From contig JANXYU010000003.1 in NCBI GenBank assembly GCA_025355855.1, positions 88,713-152,712 on the forward strand: a DNA stretch of 64,000 nucleotides, read 5' to 3'. Below, in pieces: positions 2,621-10,642 of this stretch. The translations under genes and the position numbers were made by a program. Source of the DNA: Actinomycetota bacterium. GTDB lineage: Bacteria > Actinomycetota > JAHEXW01. A model generated the notes under the pieces. It was not told the origin of the DNA. It did not search any database and was given only the letters and a program-made list of their open reading frames with translations. Within the stretch, counting starts at the first letter, position 1. The number at the start of each line of letters is the position of its first letter.

Positions 2621-3307
2621 ATGACTCTGCAATGGCTGTTTCATAACTATCAACGAGGTCTTCTGACGGCTCTTTACGAACACCCGATGGAGGCCGTCTG
2701 CCTAAGTGAACTAGCCCGGCGGGCTGGCGTCGATCCCGGCAATACCAAACGCTATCTGGAGAAGTTTGCGGAATGCGGTATAGTATCTGCCGAAAAGCGA
2801 GGACGAAAGACGGCTTTTAGGCCTAACCTGGGAAACCCTGAAACCCGCAAGATTTTTGAGCTGTTCGAGTTAGACAGGACAAAAAAGTTCTTGGCCAAGA
2901 TTCATCCCCTGGCGGATATTCGTGTCGACGCCTTCCTGACGGAACTCGTTGAACAACTGCCCGATATCAGGTTAATCGTCATGTACGGGCTGGAAGACAA
3001 CGATATCGTGGTCAGAAAACCCCTTGGCCTAGCGATCGTTGTCGGTTCTTTGCATGATACGTCCTTAGTCCATCACAAGGTCCGCTCGCTGATTGACTCA
3101 GCCGGATTCAGGCATGAATTCGAGCTCTGCGTTTATACCACCGATAATCTGGCTGCCGCCTGGAATAAGAGCGATTGCGGTTGTGTCGGTTTCTGTAATG
3201 ACCGGGTCGTGCTATTCGGCGAGGGCTACTACTGGCGACTTGTTGACAACCAATTTCATCAAGACCAAACCACCCCCACTGACGAGGAGATGGTTCAAAA
3301 TGCATAA
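2621..3307 (+). CDS. putative winged-helix transcriptional regulator with degenerate nucleotidyltransferase-like C-terminal half; first gene of the exosortase-family operon
   Basis: ATG with GAGGTG RBS. The segment LSELARRAGVDPGNTKRYLEKFAECGIVSAEKRGRKTAF resembles MarR/ArsR-type wHTH. The stop overlaps the next gene's start by 8 nt. Confidence 0.4.
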   Translation: MTLQWLFHNYQRGLLTALYEHPMEAVCLSELARRAGVDPGNTKRYLEKFAECGIVSAEKRGRKTAFRPNLGNPETRKIFELFELDRTKKFLAKIHPLADIRVDAFLTELVEQLPDIRLIVMYGLEDNDIVVRKPLGLAIVVGSLHDTSLVHHKVRSLIDSAGFRHEFELCVYTTDNLAAAWNKSDCGCVGFCNDRVVLFGEGYYWRLVDNQFHQDQTTPTDEEMVQNA

Positions 3308-4037
3308 ACTGATCGCGTTGCGCCTTAAATTTAGGACTCTCGGGCTGATAATCGCTTTGTCTTGCGTCGGCGTCCTGCTATTCGGCGCCACGGCGCTGGC
3401 AGACACCGCCTATTTTGTAAAGAACAGCTCGGAATCCGGTTTGTTCGTAAACGCGCTCAGTGACACCGTTTCGGGGTCGACTTTGGAGTATTCGATATTA
3501 AACATGACGCCGGGCCAAATTTCTTATTTCGGCTCACCGAACGCGACCTCGTATTCCAAGGTCTATCCGGGCGGCAACGGTGTCGCGGCCGGGAATTGGA
3601 CGCTTAGTGCCTGGGGTCGGTCCCTGAACGCCTCTAAAGTAGTATTCTCCGCCGAGATCGGGGAATACACCAGCGCCGGAACCTATACCGTCAAGATACC
3701 GTACGGCGACACGCCGGCCGGTTTTGGCTGGACACCCGATTTTAAGGGGGCTAACGCGACCATGAAGAGTGTCACCAAAGTCGGGGCGCCCGCCTTTACG
3801 ATTGCGGCCGGGAGCCGGATTTATGTGAGGATATACGCCAAAAATACACACTCAACACAGAATCGGGATGCCTTCCTGGCATATAACTCGACCGCAACCA
3901 ATTCAAATCTGTCGACCCCTCCGTTCGCTCAGCCTATACCCGCTCTGGGTTGGTATCTGGTTTTGGCCGGCATCGTGGTGTTCGCGTTCTTCGCCGTCGG
4001 GCAGGGTGTCTTGAAGGTGAGAAGGGATGAAGCTTGA
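3300..4037 (+). CDS. secreted Ser/Thr/Asn-rich protein with signal peptide, nine N-x-S/T sequons and a C-terminal motif+TM helix+basic tail; candidate exosortase-type sorting substrate
   Basis: ATG 3300 opens MHKLIALRLKFRTLGLIIALSCVGVLLFGATALA|DT (AxA cleavage site). The C-terminus is ...PPFAQPIPALGWYLVLAGIVVFAFFAVGQGVLKVRRDEA. The TGA stop overlaps the TTG start of the next gene. Confidence 0.5.
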   Translation: MHKLIALRLKFRTLGLIIALSCVGVLLFGATALADTAYFVKNSSESGLFVNALSDTVSGSTLEYSILNMTPGQISYFGSPNATSYSKVYPGGNGVAAGNWTLSAWGRSLNASKVVFSAEIGEYTSAGTYTVKIPYGDTPAGFGWTPDFKGANATMKSVTKVGAPAFTIAAGSRIYVRIYAKNTHSTQNRDAFLAYNSTATNSNLSTPPFAQPIPALGWYLVLAGIVVFAFFAVGQGVLKVRRDEA

Positions 4038-4633
4038 CTCAGGTCGGCACCGTATTGCTGAGCATTGCTGCGATAACCGCCTACTTGATCGGCGTGATCT
4101 ATTTTCGACGGCGCCGGGCCTGGTTGGGATATTACCTGTTCGCGACTGTCGGGCTAACGCTTATCTTGGTTTTCGGCGCGCAATTGACCGGCTTATCCGA
4201 CAGGATCGAGTATCTAGTCACTTGGCTGACCGCCCGCGCCTCACTGTTGTTAGGCATCCAGGCACAATTCCTGGGCCAAAACGAATTGATGGTCTCAGAC
4301 AAAGCGGGCTGGGTCATTTTGCGAACAACGATCGAGTGCTCGGCCTTGATCGAAACCAGCGTACTGATCGCTTTGGTTGCGTTCTATCCGGCCTTCAGGT
4401 GGACCAAGAAAGCGGCAATTTTGTCTTTCGGCCTGCCGATTACCTGGCTGTCCAACATCGTTCGGTTGCTGATCATCACGGCAGTGACGGCATTCTTTGG
4501 CCGACAAGCAGTGTTTTTCGGACACGCCGTCGTGGGCCGGTTCTTTTTTTTGGTGGTAACAATTGCCCTGTACTGGTACATCCTGACGATGCCGACAGTA
4601 AAACACATCGGGAAGTCTCTAGAACAAGGATAG
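4034..4633 (+). CDS. exosortase/archaeosortase-family protein, minimal ~199-aa form (XrtG-like)
   Basis: Polytopic membrane protein carrying family signature residues in context: TTIECSALIETSVL (Cys), NIVRLLIITAV (Arg), FGHAVVGRFFF (His/Arg). TTG start is coupled to the upstream stop. A family-2 glycosyltransferase follows immediately, as in the Gram-positive XrtG subfamily. Confidence 0.55.
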   Translation: MTQVGTVLLSIAAITAYLIGVIYFRRRRAWLGYYLFATVGLTLILVFGAQLTGLSDRIEYLVTWLTARASLLLGIQAQFLGQNELMVSDKAGWVILRTTIECSALIETSVLIALVAFYPAFRWTKKAAILSFGLPITWLSNIVRLLIITAVTAFFGRQAVFFGHAVVGRFFFLVVTIALYWYILTMPTVKHIGKSLEQG

Positions 4634-4647
4634 AGGCGAGATTCTAA

Positions 4648-6291
4648 ATGGACGGTTTGTGGACGTTTATGCTGATCTGGGGTGTTTGGATCCTGCTGCC
4701 GATTCTGGTGGACGGGTCAGACACACTTCTCAGGCTATTCGTTGTGCTGCTTTGGGGACGCAAGAAAATCCGGCCGACTGTCGCCGACGCCGACTTGCCG
4801 TTCGTCTCCATCCTTGTGCCCGCGTATAACGAAGACCAAGTCATCGACCGCTGTTTGAACTCGATCAAACTGCAGGACTATCCGCACGACAAGATGGAGG
4901 TCATTGTAATTAATGACGGTTCGAGCGACCTTACCGCGGATAAGGTTCTAAGCCATATCGACGGCCGCGAAGTCGGCATGCGCGATCTTAACCAGCGCGA
5001 TCCCAAGGGCGCCGTAAGCGATGCGGGCGAGGTTTTCAGGGTCGTACCGCCGGGCATCTATCGCAGTAAAGACATCGTCGTTGACGAAGAATCCCGCCGC
5101 CCGAAGCACGACGAAGCCCTCTTGGAAGGCAAGTATGTCGACGTCCCCGAATTCAGCGGCGAGATGACGCTCATTAATAACCACCACTTTGGCAAACCGA
5201 CCGCGTTAAACTCGGGCATCTCACAGATGAACGGGAGTCAGATAATCTTTACGGTCGACTCCGACGTCGTTCTTGATGGCGGCGCGGTACGCAATATGGT
5301 CTACGCGTTTCTGGATGATCCCAAATTGGGCGCAGCGACCGGACACATCGAGATATCCGAGGATATCGTGGAGGAACGCGACGAACTTGGTAACCTTGTC
5401 TTAGATGAGAAGGGCCACCTGATTCGCAAGAAGATGAACTTTATGCAAACCGCTTTGACGCGTCTCCAATTCCTGGAGTATTTGGACGCGTTCCGGCTCG
5501 GGCGGCAGTTCCAGGCGACGATCGGTTCCGCATACATCTTGGCGGGCGCCTTCTCCGCATTCAGGCGCAGCACCCTTATGAAGACCGAACTCTATAAACC
5601 GCGCACGGTCAGCGAGGATTTTGACTTGACCGTCGATATCCATGAAACCGGCGAGAAAGTCGGTTATGTCGCTGAATCTAAGGCCTTGCTGGCGCCTGTC
5701 ATTAACGTCAATGCTCTGTATTCCCAGCGTGTGCGCTGGTGCAGAGGACAGCTGGAAGTAGCCGGGGCGCACCAGAAAGTAATCGGCAACCGGCGTTATG
5801 GCATGGTTGGCTGGTTCGGTTTTCCGCAGATGCTGATTACCGATCACACCTTAAGTTTTCCCAGATTGATCTGGACGATTCTGATCATCATGTTTCCGCT
5901 CTTCGGTTATCCTGTTAGCACAGTCACACTGGCCCTATTGTTTACCTATGCGTTTTATGTTGTGCTTAGTTTCATGCAAACCTTCGCCGCCTACGTGATA
6001 GTAGATGGGGAAACAAAACGCAAGACGGAACGGGCCTTGGGTTGGTGTTTCGCCTTACCGTTCTACCGCTTGGTCGTATTCTACTTCCGGATGTCCGGCT
6101 ACTTGCGAACCCTTACTGAGCCAGCCGGTTGGGACATCACGTCTAAGACTTTGGTTAACGCGAACGCGAATATCGACAGACTGAAGGACGGGGCCGCCGG
6201 GATGCTCCGTACCTACAAAAGAACCGCCCATGGCGTCGCCGCCATCGTACGCTCCGTCATGATGCTCGTCCTCTTGTTCGTGCGGGACTAG
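4648..6291 (+). CDS. processive family-2 glycosyltransferase (membrane-embedded polysaccharide-synthase type)
   Basis: Motifs VPAYNED, DGSSD, GKPTALNSG, TVDSDVV (DxD), SEDFDLT, QRVRWCRGQ (QxxRW). N- and C-terminal TM helices. An ~90-aa insertion sits between DGSSD and GKPTALN. Confidence 0.75.
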   Translation: MDGLWTFMLIWGVWILLPILVDGSDTLLRLFVVLLWGRKKIRPTVADADLPFVSILVPAYNEDQVIDRCLNSIKLQDYPHDKMEVIVINDGSSDLTADKVLSHIDGREVGMRDLNQRDPKGAVSDAGEVFRVVPPGIYRSKDIVVDEESRRPKHDEALLEGKYVDVPEFSGEMTLINNHHFGKPTALNSGISQMNGSQIIFTVDSDVVLDGGAVRNMVYAFLDDPKLGAATGHIEISEDIVEERDELGNLVLDEKGHLIRKKMNFMQTALTRLQFLEYLDAFRLGRQFQATIGSAYILAGAFSAFRRSTLMKTELYKPRTVSEDFDLTVDIHETGEKVGYVAESKALLAPVINVNALYSQRVRWCRGQLEVAGAHQKVIGNRRYGMVGWFGFPQMLITDHTLSFPRLIWTILIIMFPLFGYPVSTVTLALLFTYAFYVVLSFMQTFAAYVIVDGETKRKTERALGWCFALPFYRLVVFYFRMSGYLRTLTEPAGWDITSKTLVNANANIDRLKDGAAGMLRTYKRTAHGVAAIVRSVMMLVLLFVRD

Positions 6292-6295
6292 CGCG

Positions 6296-8839
6296 TTGGC
6301 ACAGGCGATTCCCGAACCCCTGCAACCGGCCAAGCCCGACGTGCGCAAAGGTTGGACTCTGTCTCGGTTTATGCTGGGCTTGGCTTTCATTTGGCTGGTA
6401 GTGTTCGTCGTCTTCCGCCACATCGCCGAGCCGGGTGTTCCCGCTGGTAATGATGCGATGGCCCACCTGTTTAAGATCTGGTATATCGGTCAACACCTGG
6501 CCCAGACGCATACATTTCCCGTGTGGCTGCCATACTGGTACGAGGGTACTGACCTCATCAAGTATTATCAACCTCTATTCTACGTAGTCGCGACGCCCTT
6601 CTACCTGATCACGAAGGATGTGTTCACCACTTACCGGATCGTCACGTTCGTTTGGATCGGGCTAGTGAGCCTGTCCATGTACGGAGTAGTCTACCGCCGT
6701 CTCGGCCTATTCCCAGCAATCGTCGCCGCCATCCTCTACGCATTGTCCCCGCCCGTGATAAGGGCCTATTTTTATGTCGGTCTGCTGCCGCAGGCGTTCT
6801 CGTACATATTTCTGCCGCTGGCTTTTCATTTCACCCTGCGCCTGGCCGATGAAGGCGCCAAGAGGGCCAAGACGGTCGCGCTACTGGCCGTCTGTTGGGG
6901 TCTATTTATTCTGGCCCATCCGATGAGCGCGGCTTTCTCGATGATGGCCACGTTCGTCTTTATTGCTGTCTATCAGGCTACTAAACAGGAGGAACGGCAC
7001 CCCCTGGTGGTCACGCGCTACCTTTTGTCAGCGGCTTTGGGAATCGGCGTAGCCGCCCTCTGGTTCGTGCCGGCTTACTTCGGCAAGATAATGCCGCCAA
7101 CGTCAGGCGAAGCGGTTTTTACGACTTCGGTTCCCTTGAAGGAGTTGGCGGGGTTTGTCACTGGCGCCGCGACCGTAAACGCCCGCTATATTCCGATTGC
7201 TCTGTCTATCTTGGCGATAGCGGGAACATTCTGGCGTCGTACCGCGCTCGCGTGGGGCTTAGCCGCCATGGGAGCGTTTACGATGATCTTCGCGTTGGGC
7301 GTGCAAACGCCCCTCTATAGTTGGGTACCACTGTCGTCGGCCATTTTTCCTGAGTACGCTCTTTTCGGCGCCTGTTTCGCGTTTGCTTTTCTGGCCGGCC
7401 GCCTTTTCGAAAGAACTATCCGTAACCGGGCCAAAGACGCTGCGACTGTCGTTCTCATCGTGACGGTGGTATTTATCGCCTTGTTGGAAACACAACCTGT
7501 CTTTACGTCAGTCATCAACAAGCCCGCGCCGTCCGACATTATTCGCTTACTCGATAAAGCGAAAACCTTGCCCGCCGACGGCCGGGTATCGATGCTTGGC
7601 CATTCCTCGGCGGTCCTGTCCTATTATCCGACTGTCTTGACAGGCCGCCAGATCACCGAGGGTTTCTTCTACCAAGGAACGAACCACTACAAAGAAATCG
7701 CCAATATCAACGACGTGCAGATTCATGATTATTCGCCCGAATATGTCCACCGGAAGCTGGCGCAGTGGAACACGCGGTATATCATGGTTCACACCGCGAC
7801 GCTTACGCAGGACAAGGCGGTCATCCCGCCGGGCTATAAAAAGGTCGCTACGGCCCAATTGTGGAATCTTTTCTATCAGGATAAGGCCCGTTCAAGCTTC
7901 CAGCTAATGACTCACGACACTATTGCCATCGGCAAGAACCCGGCCATCGTCGCTCTGCGCTATCCCTGGGTCGTCGAGGGCGGCTTGTATGTCGACAACT
8001 ACGATTGGAAATATCTTTCGCAATTCAAACGGATCATCCTGACCGGCTTCGCTTTTCATGATCGCAAGACGACCGTCGATCTGATAACTCGACTGGCGGA
8101 GAGCGGACGCACGGTCGTTATCGATCTCCAAGACGTCGCGAGTGAGTTCGGCACTGAGAGCGTCTCGTTTATGAATGTGTTGCCGATTCCCGTGACGACC
8201 CGTCAGCAAATCAGCCTGACACCGTCCGAGCAATTAACCGGCCTGCCACGGCGAAAACTTAATCTGCGGAATCTTGCTTATAACGGGGAGGCCTGGAAGG
8301 CGGTAGTCTATACGGGCCTCGACTCAAGCGCGTACGATGTCACGATCGAGGGCAAAACCTACAGCGCGTTGGGCTATAAGCGCGCCGGAGCGGGCAAGAT
8401 ATATTTCGCGGGTTTGAATCTATTTTTCCACAATTTGCTGGCGGCCGAGAAAGATGGGACCGCGCTCACCGATTGGCTGGCCGGTCCGCGTGATCCCAGT
8501 CTGTATATGACCAATTTCCCTGTCACAGCCCAAACCTGGCGCGATGATTCGGTCGACTTCAGTTACACGTCAACGAAGACCGCTCCGGTTGTGGTTTCGA
8601 CAACTTGGACCGAAAACTGGCACGCGACAATCGACGGAAAGCCGCTCAAGGCCTACGCATATGAAAACATGCCGTTGTTCTTCCTGCCCGCCGGCGCTCA
8701 TACGATCGAGTTGAAATACGGCACAACGGGATTGGAGATTTTTGCTACGCTTATCACGGTAGCGTCAGTCGCAATCGTCCTCTTCATTTTAATAAGGAGC
8801 GTGCGCCGTAAAAACAGCGCTGATAATACCGGCCTTTAA
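6296..8839 (+). CDS. large polytopic membrane protein (~13 N-terminal TM helices, ~430-aa extracytoplasmic domain, terminal TM anchor); candidate GT-C-fold/YfhO-like glycosyltransferase, XrtG-associated
   Basis: Hydropathy pattern read from the translation. Acidic first loop (GNDAMAHLF...WYEGTD). Synteny between a processive GT2 and a polyprenol-phosphate-sugar-synthase-like GT2. Confidence 0.45.
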   Translation: MAQAIPEPLQPAKPDVRKGWTLSRFMLGLAFIWLVVFVVFRHIAEPGVPAGNDAMAHLFKIWYIGQHLAQTHTFPVWLPYWYEGTDLIKYYQPLFYVVATPFYLITKDVFTTYRIVTFVWIGLVSLSMYGVVYRRLGLFPAIVAAILYALSPPVIRAYFYVGLLPQAFSYIFLPLAFHFTLRLADEGAKRAKTVALLAVCWGLFILAHPMSAAFSMMATFVFIAVYQATKQEERHPLVVTRYLLSAALGIGVAALWFVPAYFGKIMPPTSGEAVFTTSVPLKELAGFVTGAATVNARYIPIALSILAIAGTFWRRTALAWGLAAMGAFTMIFALGVQTPLYSWVPLSSAIFPEYALFGACFAFAFLAGRLFERTIRNRAKDAATVVLIVTVVFIALLETQPVFTSVINKPAPSDIIRLLDKAKTLPADGRVSMLGHSSAVLSYYPTVLTGRQITEGFFYQGTNHYKEIANINDVQIHDYSPEYVHRKLAQWNTRYIMVHTATLTQDKAVIPPGYKKVATAQLWNLFYQDKARSSFQLMTHDTIAIGKNPAIVALRYPWVVEGGLYVDNYDWKYLSQFKRIILTGFAFHDRKTTVDLITRLAESGRTVVIDLQDVASEFGTESVSFMNVLPIPVTTRQQISLTPSEQLTGLPRRKLNLRNLAYNGEAWKAVVYTGLDSSAYDVTIEGKTYSALGYKRAGAGKIYFAGLNLFFHNLLAAEKDGTALTDWLAGPRDPSLYMTNFPVTAQTWRDDSVDFSYTSTKTAPVVVSTTWTENWHATIDGKPLKAYAYENMPLFFLPAGAHTIELKYGTTGLEIFATLITVASVAIVLFILIRSVRRKNSADNTGL

Positions 8840-9518
8840 CGAGAAAGAAAATATCGGACCGCTGCTTGATCGCGTCGAGACAGTCATCGCGGACTCGGCT
8901 CTGACTTTAGATGTCGTTGTCGTCGATGATGGCTCCTTCGACACCACCGGATCGATCGCGGCGGACAAGGCGGCAAAATACGGTAACGTCAATGTGGTCA
9001 CCCACGAGGTAAATAAGGGCTTTGCCGCTGCGCTCAAGACCGGTATCGCCGCCGCACTGGCAGGCGGATACGACGCCGCTGTCTTTATGGACTGTGACCA
9101 GACACACGATCCCGCCGATTTGCCGGCCTTTCTTACGCAATTGGAACGCGGTACTGACCTGGTTATCGGCTCTCGTTATGTGGGAACCGGCGGGATGGTC
9201 GATGTCCCGTGGCACCGCGTGGCGATCAGCGTGCTCGGCAACGGTTTCGGCAAGCTTGTCTTTCGGCTCCCGGTCCGCGACGCTTCCAGCGGATATCGCG
9301 CTCTGAGCCGCAAGGCTATGGCATCGCTCCGCATCGCCTCCAATGATTTCAGCATCCAGGTCGAAGAGGTCCTGCGCGCCCGGCGGCTGGGTCTGACTTT
9401 CTCGGAGATACCCATAACTCTGGTGAATCGCAAACTAGGTTCGTCAAAATTCAATCTGAATATCTCGGCGCTGTGGCGCTATTTCTTATTAATGTTTAGG
9501 AGCCTGACATGGCGCTAA
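8820..9518 (+). CDS. family-2 glycosyltransferase of the polyprenol-phosphate sugar synthase type (DPM1/GtrB/ArnC-like), soluble form; start codon unresolved
   Basis: ...ALIIPAFNEKENIGPLLDRV...VVVVDDGSFDTT...FMDCDQTHDP...GSRYVG. The frame is open only from 8796 and has no ATG/GTG/TTG before 8994. The start is either CTG 8820 or a frameshift near the A5 run at 8810-8814. Confidence 0.65.
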   Translation: MIIPAFNEKENIGPLLDRVETVIADSALTLDVVVVDDGSFDTTGSIAADKAAKYGNVNVVTHEVNKGFAAALKTGIAAALAGGYDAAVFMDCDQTHDPADLPAFLTQLERGTDLVIGSRYVGTGGMVDVPWHRVAISVLGNGFGKLVFRLPVRDASSGYRALSRKAMASLRIASNDFSIQVEEVLRARRLGLTFSEIPITLVNRKLGSSKFNLNISALWRYFLLMFRSLTWR

Positions 9519-10642
9519 AGGTGATGGCCGTTTTTGGCACTCGGCCGGAAGCAATCAAGCTGGCGCCGGTTATCGACGAGTTACGGCAACGGGACGGGGT
9601 CGAATGTCGCGTCGTAGTCACGGCGCAGCATCGGGAGATGATCGACCAGGCTTTGAATATTTTCGAAATCCGGCCGGACGCGGACCTGAATATTATGCGC
9701 CCCGACCAGACGCTGGACGATGTCGTCTGCCGGGCGCTGGCCGGGATTGCGCCTGTCTTTGAAACCATGGAGCCGGATGTCGTTTTGGTCCAAGGAGACA
9801 CGACGAGCGCGCTGGCGATGGCTTTGGCCGCCAGTCACCGCGGCATCACCGTCGGCCACGTGGAAGCCGGCCTGCGCACCCACGACAAGGCGCACCCGTT
9901 TCCGGAAGAACTGAATCGTCAAATGATCGGCCGCCTGGCCGACCTCCATTTCGCCCCGACCGAGATCGCCCGCGATAATCTGCTGGCAGAAGGCATAGCG
10001 TCAGATCGCGTCTTCCTGACAGGCAACACAGTCGTTGACACGCTGCTCCGGCTATCAACCGAGATTAGAGAACCGGTGGACGATACGCTACGGCGAATTG
10101 ATTTCGATAAACAAAGGGTCATTCTCGTAACCGCGCACCGGCGCGAGAATTTCGGGGCGCCTCTCGAGCATATTGCGACCGCCGTTAGGCAAATCGCGGA
10201 GGAACATGCGGACGTCGAGATTGTCCTACCGGTACATCCGAACCCACGCGTTAGCGCGGTAATGCGCGCGGCGCTCGCTAACGTCGAACGCGTCCATTTG
10301 GTTAAACCACTAAACTACTCCGATCTAATCTGGGTCTTAGCGCGTTGCTATTTCGCCATGACGGATTCCGGCGGCATTCAGGAGGAAGCTCCGACTTTTA
10401 AGAAGCCCGTACTGGTTATGCGGGAGAAGACGGAGCGGCCTGAAGGTATTGAGGCCGGCGTTGCTAAAATCGTTGGGACGACCGTTTACCGCCTGGTCGG
10501 CGCGGCATCCGATTTGCTTAATAACGAAGGGGTCTACGCCAGCATGCGGGCCCGGAAGAACCCCTACGGCGACGGCCATGCCGCCGCCCGGATCGCCGAC
10601 ATTCTGCTCGAAACCCTATCAGATACTGCGAGAAAACTCTAA
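9509..10642 (+). CDS. wecB: UDP-N-acetylglucosamine 2-epimerase (non-hydrolysing)
   Basis: MALKVMAVFGTRPEAIKLAPV...HVEAGLRT...RENFG...TDSGGIQEEAP are typical WecB/MnaA family segments; 377 aa. Confidence 0.9.
   Translation: MALKVMAVFGTRPEAIKLAPVIDELRQRDGVECRVVVTAQHREMIDQALNIFEIRPDADLNIMRPDQTLDDVVCRALAGIAPVFETMEPDVVLVQGDTTSALAMALAASHRGITVGHVEAGLRTHDKAHPFPEELNRQMIGRLADLHFAPTEIARDNLLAEGIASDRVFLTGNTVVDTLLRLSTEIREPVDDTLRRIDFDKQRVILVTAHRRENFGAPLEHIATAVRQIAEEHADVEIVLPVHPNPRVSAVMRAALANVERVHLVKPLNYSDLIWVLARCYFAMTDSGGIQEEAPTFKKPVLVMREKTERPEGIEAGVAKIVGTTVYRLVGAASDLLNNEGVYASMRARKNPYGDGHAAARIADILLETLSDTARKL

Follow-up and report, generated by a model that had tools for sequence, protein, structure and literature searches.

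A Putative Non-canonical GTA Start Codon Behind a Conserved Shine-Dalgarno Sequence in an Overlapping Glycosyltransferase Gene of an Actinomycetota Bacterium

Gene Organization at the Junction

We analyzed a 64,000 nucleotide (nt) stretch of DNA (the window) from an Actinomycetota bacterium (GenBank assembly GCA_025355855.1, contig JANXYU010000003.1, positions 88,713 to 152,712), with a GC content of 56.8%. Within it, a gene for a small glycosyltransferase of family 2 (GT2) overlaps the 3′ end of a gene for a polytopic membrane protein of the Pfam family PF10131, and the GT2 frame has no canonical start codon ahead of its conserved N-terminal motifs. Comparison to the same junction in related lineages suggests that the GT2 gene is probably a separate gene of 236 codons that is started at a weak, non-canonical GTA codon (position 8808) behind a conserved Shine-Dalgarno sequence. 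Positions given below are those of the window, and codon −7 refers to the numbering introduced in the next section. The features of the junction are as follows.

6296..8839, plus strand: gene for the PF10131 (PTPS_related) polytopic membrane protein, 847 amino acids (aa) as listed (Pfam E = 2e−60)
8793..8799, plus strand: TAAGGAG, predicted Shine-Dalgarno sequence of the GT2 gene (core AGGAG, 8795-8799), inside the upstream codons ATA AGG AGC (I R S)
8808..8810, plus strand: GTA, proposed non-canonical initiation codon of the GT2 gene (codon −7), 8 nt after AGGAG and at the usual start of the family
8808..9518, plus strand: GT2 gene, predicted DPM1-like polyprenyl-phosphate-sugar synthase, 236 codons plus TAA (PF00535, 93 bits)
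8810..8814, plus strand: run of five A (A5), GT[A AAA A]CA, not conserved (4/9 lineages)
8820..8828, plus strand: CTG ATA ATA (L I I, strand β1), less likely alternative starts, 20-26 nt from the Shine-Dalgarno sequence
8837..8839, plus strand: TAA stop of the PF10131 gene, within the GT2 codons TTT AAC (F-N of P-A-F-N-E), at the same position in 9/9 lineages
8994..8996, plus strand: GTG, first canonical start codon in the GT2 frame; public gene calls give a 174-aa product (P0007)

The GT2 frame, whose codons start at positions divisible by 3, contains TAA TAA at 8790-8795, is open from 8796 and then reads GACAVKTALIIPAFNEKENIGPLLDRV.... The initial annotation, made from the sequence of the window, had placed the opening of this frame at 8796 and had found no ATG, GTG or TTG in it before GTG 8994, and both observations are borne out. 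So are the end of the 847-aa upstream open reading frame (ORF) at 8839, with its TAA at 8837-8839 and a C-terminus reading ...LFILIRSVRRKNSADNTGL*, and the presence of five A at 8810-8814 within the overlap. That annotation made no mention of TAAGGAG at 8793-8799 or of the GTA codon at 8808-8810, which lies exactly 8 nt behind it. From GTA 8808 the GT2 gene overlaps the final 32 nt of the PF10131 gene in the +1 frame. The near-cognate codons ahead of the conserved motif in the GT2 frame are limited to CTG 8820, ATA 8823 and ATA 8826, with ATC 8853 and others following later. The match to PF00535 begins at residue 5 of the translation from 8808. A start at GTG 8994 would mean the loss of both the P-A-F-N-E and the V-V-D-D-G motifs.

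Orthologous Junctions in Related Lineages

Junctions for comparison came from a scan of genome contigs, a search with the GT2 protein, and the contigs that encode its best matches. The genome-contig scan with the 847-aa protein returned one orthologous locus (L002). A scan of metagenome contigs with the GT2 alignment returned only two distant GT2s (L013 and L014, 31-34% identity), which are uninformative for the junction. The overlapping arrangement is represented by nine lineages: the window together with L001, then L002, L012, L015, L003, L016, L004/5, L008-10, and L011. Across these, the identity of the GT2 protein to that of the window is 66-84%. Codons are numbered from the Pro of P-A-Y/F-N-E, which is encoded at 8829 in the window.

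The layout of the junction is the same in 9/9 overlapping lineages: AGGAG, then exactly 8 nt, then codon −7. This codon is GTA in the window/L001, L002, and L012, ATC in five lineages (L015, L003, L016, L008-10, and L011), and ATA in the remaining one (L004/5). The three GTA lineages have diverged from each other, with an amino acid identity of 74-84%. Canonical start codons are sporadic in the overlapping lineages and occur at differing places. GTG is found at −10 in L002, L012, and L015, and TTG or GTG at −3 in L015, L003, L016, and L004. L002 and L012 also have GTG at −2, where the window has ATA; at −10 the window has GCG (8799-8801). A canonical start is missing altogether from the window, L008-10 (from three samples) and L011, whose ORFs are nevertheless intact, with 236-242 codons counted from −7. 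The public gene models of these startless lineages are shortened to 174, 206, and 209 aa. In L004 a TGA stands two codons ahead of the ATA.

Three further relatives place the GT2 gene between two UDP-GlcNAc 2-epimerase-like genes and not behind a PF10131 gene (L006:534-1253, L017:1039-1758, L007:4001-4711). These non-overlapping lineages have canonical starts, namely TTG at −10 in L006 and L017, in a TTGA overlap, and GTG at −7 in L007. ATG or GTG is never found at −7 in the overlapping arrangement, though it is one mutation away in every lineage.

Three of the contigs have irregularities of their own. L016 contains an in-frame stop in the PF10131 frame (L016:400-520, …YGTTPL*VFAMIV…), located before the last transmembrane helix and ~34 codons ahead of the TAA. 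No upstream gene is called on this contig; the Shine-Dalgarno sequence, ATC, and GT2 gene are intact. The in-frame stop may mark a shortened allele or stem from an error of assembly. In L012 the resemblance to the C-terminus of PF10131 is confined to the final ~37 codons before the GT2 gene (L012:1-290), and further upstream there are stops and no called gene. L012 keeps the signal of AGGAG, 8 nt, and GTA, and its GT2 gene may persist without an intact upstream partner. Downstream of the GT2 gene in L008, the UDP-GlcNAc 2-epimerase is split into two calls of 282 aa and 70 aa, both PF02350 (L008:3529-4656), which suggests a frameshift or a sequencing error.

The same set of junctions bears on the quality of the sequence. 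Homopolymer runs are classic sites of indel errors and the source of the window is metagenome-derived, and a wrong length of the A run or a wrong base call at the start codon would account for a gene that appears to lack a start. The initial annotation had listed a sequencing indel among its alternatives. However, a second, non-identical assembly (L001, GCA_043725015.1) has only 7 mismatches in 11,559 nt and an identical junction, and because of this an assembly artefact is disfavored. GTA and A5 recur in L002 and L012, which come from other samples. The same frame relation without a canonical start is found in L008, L009, and L010, from three samples, and in L011, and the +1 relation as such is common to all nine lineages from their different samples. 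An error of either kind is thus extremely unlikely. A related candidate, GTG 8801 of the upstream frame serving as the GT2 start if the run were in truth four A, was rejected: it lies 1 nt from the Shine-Dalgarno sequence, and independent samples again have both A5 and the frame relation.

The Shine-Dalgarno Sequence and the Switch of Coding Constraint

AGGAG is present in 9/9 lineages, and its Arg codon is in every case the rare AGG, which makes up 7-17% of the Arg codons in six PF10131 orthologues. Among these six full-length orthologues there are 17 columns of invariant Arg. Sixteen of them are synonymously scrambled, and the one exception is the Arg of AGGAG, for which 6/6 sequences share one codon. 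Likewise, just 1/38 of the upstream-frame wobble positions between −45 and −8 is invariant, and this is the G of AGG. Judging from this codon usage, AGGAG is under selection at the nucleotide level. Its distance to the GTA codon is an ordinary one, as the spacing from AGGAG to the start of long ORFs in the window is mostly 4-10 nt (21/36 cases) and 8 nt is common.

The phase of the variable positions changes at the proposed start. Before codon −7 they fall on the third positions of the upstream frame, and from −7 on they fall on the third positions of the GT2 frame. Constraint on the PF10131 frame stops at codon −8, leaving the last ~10 codons (8810-8836) as an unconstrained tail that lies over the GT2 gene. 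The last residues of the PF10131 orthologues vary freely (KNSADNTGL, KNGGGNPGL, QLSIDYPRV, QIRSGYTGL). In codon −7 the middle base is T in 9/9 lineages despite being a wobble position of the upstream frame, and the codon as a whole follows the pattern A/G-T-A/C in 9/9.

The length of the N-terminus in homologous proteins points to the same codon. Of the 120 best homologues, 81 fit the strict motif, and in 52 of these the Pro of P-x-Y/F-N-E is preceded by 7 or 8 residues, typically as M-K/R-x5-P; the usual family start has M or V at −7, with K or R behind it. The dolichol phosphate mannose synthase (DPMS) of Pyrococcus furiosus (5mlz) aligns from query residue 2, which is the K at codon −6. A start at GTA is supported because the signals are conserved, because the coding constraint switches frame at −7, and because three lineages have no canonical alternative.

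In the proposed mechanism, TAAGGAG (8793-8799) would position ribosomes from inside the upstream coding sequence, and initiation would occur 8 nt downstream at the usual start codon of the GT2 family, which is here GTA 8808. The initiator tRNA would read GTA weakly, giving a product that begins fMet-K-T-A-L-I-I-P-A-F-N-E... (fMet/Met-KTALIIPAFNEK), where fMet is formylmethionine. Such initiation would presumably be at a low level and sensitive to initiation factor 3 (IF3). It would probably be helped by ribosomes translating or terminating the upstream PF10131 gene. Ribosomes that reach the end of an upstream ORF re-initiate more readily when a Shine-Dalgarno sequence is present (PMC2268962), and the one described here could add re-initiation coupling to the PF10131 gene, whose stop is 27 nt downstream.

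Non-canonical initiation had been one of the alternatives of the initial annotation, which put it at CTG 8820. The comparison supports this kind of initiation, at GTA 8808 and not at CTG 8820. A separate gene with a start further downstream, at CTG 8820 or at ATA 8823/8826, would still have a conceivable route to expression, for example by re-initiation after TAA 8837-8839 with a back-scan of 9-17 nt. Bidirectional scanning and re-initiation near stop codons are documented (PMC2268962), and in E. coli the codons AUA, AUC, and CUG reach 1-2% of the initiation seen with AUG (bioRxiv 10.1101/063800). The TTG or GTG called as the start in L003, L015, L016, and L004, with an overlap of 20 nt, corresponds in the alignment to CTG 8820, and the GTG called in L002 (P0001) corresponds to ATA 8823. 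The codons at these places behave as internal codons, however. Codon −3 is a synonymous Leu (CTG/CTA/TTG/TTA), being CTA in L002, L012, and L011 and CTA/TTA in L006/L017, and codon −2 alternates between I and V. TTG or GTG at −3 (L003, L015, L016, L004) was therefore rejected as a conserved start, as the change is synonymous and CTA is present in 3/9 lineages. Constraint on the GT2 frame starts already at −6, and AGGAG is 20-26 nt from these codons, outside the 4-10 nt range of the window. A downstream start would leave 1-3 residues before the Pro, versus 7-8 in the 52/81 homologues, and strand β1 would consequently be truncated. We consider a start at one of these codons unlikely.

Integrity of the GT2 Gene

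The GT2 ORF of the window is intact over 241 codons and carries the family residue at each of the 84 invariant columns of the orthologue alignment. Compared to L002, the 61 codons upstream of GTG 8994 (8811-8993) have a dN/dS ratio of 0.26 and the remaining codons one of 0.06, dS being ~0.65-0.94. When four outgroups are used to assign amino acid changes to lineages, the window has 11 lineage-specific changes versus 7 in L002, which is no excess. By these measures, the GT2 gene of the window is under purifying selection, with no sign of decay.

These data bear on the possibility that the lineage of the window has lost a functional start, e.g., by a change from GTG, as in L002, to GCG at 8799-8801. 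In that case little or no GT2 would be made, and the gene would be on its way to becoming a pseudogene. L002 and L012, the nearest relatives, do carry GTG at −10 and −2, against GCG and ATA in the window, and GUA is expected to be a poor start codon. However, the intact ORF, the complete set of invariant residues, the low dN/dS ratios and the similar numbers of lineage-specific changes are not those of a decaying gene. L008-10 and L011 are also startless yet intact, and the epimerase gene is still coupled to the end of the GT2 gene in the window. The lost codon itself is a poor candidate. No nucleotide separates GTG at −10 from AGGA, and the change between GTG and GCG at this codon is that of a neutral Ser wobble position; on the same grounds GTG at −10 in L002, L012, and L015 was rejected as the ancestral start. 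A lost start is, in our estimation, decidedly unlikely.

Frameshifting at the A Run

The initial annotation had proposed that a +/−1 shift at the A run could fuse the membrane protein to the GT2 domain. In simulated indels only one direction joins the frames. Deleting one A, equivalent to a +1 ribosomal shift, produces a continuous ORF of 1073 aa. Adding one A, equivalent to a −1 shift, produces a stop after three codons and a protein of 842 aa, and a −1 shift on the run was rejected on this account. What remains is a programmed +1 frameshift, or transcriptional slippage, at A5 within CGT AAA AAC. The topology of the fusion would be sensible, with the last transmembrane helix and RSVRRK followed by a cytoplasmic GT-A domain. 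The switch of constraint at −7/−6 is compatible with a shift there. A fusion of this sort also has a precedent in Ppm1 of Mycobacterium tuberculosis, in which a membrane domain is fused to a polyprenol monophosphomannose (PPM) synthase (PMC3485146).

Fused forms are absent from the homologues that we examined. The 120 best GT2 homologues are all 174-293 aa, and five close homologues of the membrane protein, found by a word-index search, are 804-848 aa. An exhaustive HMMER search returned 1179 relatives of the membrane protein, and the best 150 include 29 that are longer than 950 aa. A phmmer search with the GT2 of the window against 154 collected PF10131 relatives gave no match even at E <= 10. 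The long relatives were rejected as fusion forms: the extensions tested are PF01242 (N-terminal) or lack a Pfam match (C-terminal), and 0/154 relatives contain GT2-like sequence.

The junction also lacks a conserved shift site. The A5 run is shared by the window, L002, L012, and L004, but L015 has four A, and 4/9 junctions (L003, L016, L008, L011) have no A run and there is no common slippery codon. The upstream-frame codons at the switch are CGT AAA, CAT CAA, or AAT AAA, which share no possibility of re-pairing. The 0-frame codon after AAA is an ordinary AAC, neither rare nor a stop, and across the lineages it is AAC, CTC, ATA, or GAC. In L002, L012, and L004, moreover, an identical A5 run goes together with GTG codons of the GT2 frame, which by the initial annotation's own criterion speaks against a fusion. 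A hairpin or pseudoknot conserved at the junction was looked for and not found; the consensus fold has −0.5 kcal/mol and 3 pairs, with no covariation. The position of the Shine-Dalgarno sequence is unfavorable as well, since AGGAG lies 10 nt upstream of the AAA codon. A Shine-Dalgarno-like element at a spacing of 10 nt stimulates −1 shifting, as in dnaX, while the +1 shift of prfB needs 3 nt, and a −1 shift here leads into the stop. A run of five A is too short for efficient transcriptional slippage. The locus resembles prfB (+1) and dnaX (−1) in its overlapping frames, its upstream Shine-Dalgarno-like element and its A-rich run. It differs from them in having no conserved slippery site, no stop or rare codon, no downstream structure, the wrong spacing for +1 and no fused orthologues. 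Frameshifting would also leave the invariant T of codon −7 and the exact 8 nt spacing unexplained. Given the free-standing orthologous GT2 genes and the absence of a conserved slippery site or structure, a frameshift fusion at A5 is unsupported, and we regard it as very improbable.

The GT2 Product and Its Membrane Partner

The translation from GTA 8808 matches PF00535 with 93.2 bits against a cut-off of 23.3, with residues 5-171 aligned to profile positions 2-164 of 168. It contains all of the expected motifs, i.e., P-x-Y/F-N-E, V-D-D-G-S, and D-x-D (FMDCDQ), and D40, D41, D95, and D97 are invariant in an alignment of 11 orthologous sequences. The match to the P. furiosus DPMS (5mlz) has an E-value of 4.5e−24 and covers query residues 2-235 and chain residues 24-249. 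Matches to ArnC and GtrB are weaker and mostly confined to the N-terminal part. No NCBIfam equivalog reached its cut-off, the best being AglJ (72.6 bits vs 325) and PpgS (70 vs 370). The best-scoring GT2 homologues are annotated as polyprenol monophosphomannose synthase. The GT2 has no C-terminal transmembrane helices and ends at the equivalent of residue ~249 of the 374-residue 5mlz chain. From these matches we infer a soluble or peripheral DPM1-like polyprenyl-phosphate-sugar synthase.

The PF10131 protein matches nearly the full length of its model (residues 89-712 against profile positions 2-621 of 621). A comparison of the 847-aa protein to the sequences in the PDB found no match to any solved structure. 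Some of its PF10131 relatives match Pfam YfhO weakly. The protein is presumed to be GT-C-like because of these weak YfhO matches of its relatives and because of the gene context. Among the relatives with N-terminal extensions, 5/5 of those tested (P0160, P0193, P0222, P0238, and P0212) carry a 6-pyruvoyl-tetrahydropterin synthase domain (PF01242), which explains the family name PTPS_related. Three others (P0140, P0187, and P0205) are extended by 210-270 aa at the C-terminus, and these parts match no Pfam family.

Extracytoplasmic glycosylation of the three-component type combines a GT2 of the GtrB/CsbB type with a GT-C enzyme such as YfhO. By analogy, the GT2 described here is predicted to make a polyprenyl-phosphate-sugar donor for the large polytopic protein encoded next to it, a presumed glycosyltransferase, and it probably supplies the lipid-linked sugar to its PF10131 GT-C-like neighbor. 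In contrast to GtrB and the P. furiosus DPMS, the GT2 of the window has no C-terminal transmembrane helices, and no flippase was identified. A second parallel is mycobacterial Ppm1, in that a DPM1-like synthase without transmembrane helices is encoded right behind a polytopic membrane protein. In M. tuberculosis, Ppm1 is a fusion of a membrane domain D1 and a synthase domain D2, whereas M. smegmatis, M. leprae, and Corynebacterium glutamicum encode Ppm2 and Ppm1 as separate ORFs (PMC3485146). The partner here is a PF10131 protein and not a member of the six-transmembrane D1 family, and the ORFs are separate, as in M. smegmatis. The Ppm1 precedent makes the idea of a fusion reasonable, and this locus has the two-ORF arrangement.

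The junction lies in a conserved block of genes, in the order processive GT2, PF10131 protein, small GT2, and UDP-GlcNAc 2-epimerase. The remaining features of the block are listed here.

4648..6291, plus strand: gene for a membrane-bound processive-type GT2, 547 aa, chitin-synthase/PgaC-like, which opens the conserved block (synteny)
9498..9502, plus strand: AGGAG, predicted Shine-Dalgarno sequence of the UDP-GlcNAc 2-epimerase gene, within the 3′ end of the GT2 gene and 6 nt ahead of ATG 9509
9509..10642, plus strand: UDP-N-acetylglucosamine 2-epimerase gene, 377 aa (PF02350, E = 9e−120), with a 10 nt overlap with the end of the GT2 gene

The epimerase provides an internal contrast to the small GT2, as it is also an overlapping gene of the same operon and has a canonical ATG start. 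Its AGGAG is again written AGG AGC (R S), so that the operon twice hides a ribosome-binding site in an R-S dipeptide. The sugar transferred by the GT2 is possibly N-acetylhexosamine, which is suggested because the UDP-GlcNAc 2-epimerase gene adjoins.

Directly upstream of the 547-aa processive GT2 is an exosortase gene of the EpsH family (PF09721) at window positions 4034-4633 (from L001 2739-3338), preceded by two ORFs without a Pfam match (window ~2621-4037). The pair of EpsH and GT2 genes is also present in L015. The glycosylation block may be part of a locus for exopolysaccharide or protein sorting that is associated with the exosortase. Scans of the 64-kb window found no tRNA or tmRNA gene, and none of the Rfam families reached the gathering threshold.

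Initiation at GTA 8808 Compared to Other Non-canonical Starts

The pcnB gene of E. coli has an AUU start codon. Native non-canonical starts in Streptomyces include the GTC of sigR, which is accompanied by a strong ribosome-binding site (Feeney et al., 2017, mBio, PMC5472188), and the ATC of infC (PMC5472188). In E. coli, deep mutational scanning of TEM-1 identified GUA, GUC, and GUU as weak initiation codons (Firnberg et al., 2014, PMC4032126), with GUA at 7-14% of the fitness of AUG (PMC4032126). An earlier case of GUA initiation, in recJ, is cited there (Haggerty and Lovett, 1997, in PMC4032126); its title describes an IF3-mediated suppression of a recJ GUA initiation-codon mutation. The GUA codons of recJ and TEM-1 are laboratory mutants, whereas the GTA proposed here would be native and found in three diverged lineages.

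The closest parallel is with sigR. Both have a G-U-N codon other than GUG as the native start (proposed in the present case), a strong ribosome-binding site and coupled genes in an operon, and in both, gene finders shift the start to nearby canonical codons. A further feature of sigR is that its weak start sets the stoichiometry with a partner protein. The present gene differs from sigR in encoding a glycosyltransferase, in having GTA here and ATC or ATA in relatives, in starting inside the upstream gene and in that the evidence is comparative only. It shares with infC (AUU/AUC) a conserved A-U-H start codon with a Shine-Dalgarno sequence, AUC being found in 5/9 lineages. The infC gene autoregulates through IF3, and unlike it there is no reason to expect feedback here.

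Several points weigh against initiation at GTA. We found no native bacterial GUA start documented in the literature, and GUA mismatches the initiator anticodon at two positions. The placement of the N-terminus at GTA comes from comparison alone, and this comparison covers nine lineages, all of them from metagenomes. Within the GTA clade, the changes at −5 and −4 leave the upstream protein unaltered and are conservative in the GT2 frame (T to I, A to V); thus the GTA clade alone is no proof that codons −6 to −4 are translated as GT2. The GTG codons at −10 and −2 could serve as starts in L002 and L012, and the window would then simply have lost its start. A frameshift at −7 predicts the switch of frame equally well.

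A separate question is why codon −7 is never ATG or GTG in the overlapping arrangement. In the lineages with the overlap, selection may keep a weak, IF3-sensitive start (AUC, AUA, or GUA) behind the strong internal Shine-Dalgarno sequence and reject AUG and GUG, holding the synthase low relative to its partner and dependent on upstream translation, with GUA as a native start in three lineages. This suggestion is tentative, and we hold it to be possible, not probable. In the upstream frame, relative to which the GT2 frame is +1, a G at the third base of −7 would only turn a K or Q into E. The lack of G at this base could therefore reflect avoidance of Glu in the basic upstream tail and not selection for a weak start.

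Implications

With initiation at GTA 8808 as the favored reading, the locus is noteworthy in that the non-canonical start is, on the present comparison, a feature of an entire clade and linked to a single arrangement of overlapping genes. The frameshift-made fusion of a GT-C-like protein to the synthase of its donor, an attractive idea, is removed as unsupported. [quoted passage not shown] Shortened gene models without the catalytic motifs would pass for broken genes. The approach used here, i.e., following the phase of the variable positions across an overlap together with a test for a frozen rare codon, needs no experiment and is reusable for other overlapping gene pairs. The GT2 gene would be a comparative-genomic addition to the few documented native non-canonical starts (infC, pcnB, and sigR), and would include a natural GUA. 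For these bacteria, the weak start would be a way to set the ratio of the synthase of a lipid-linked sugar donor to the membrane transferase.

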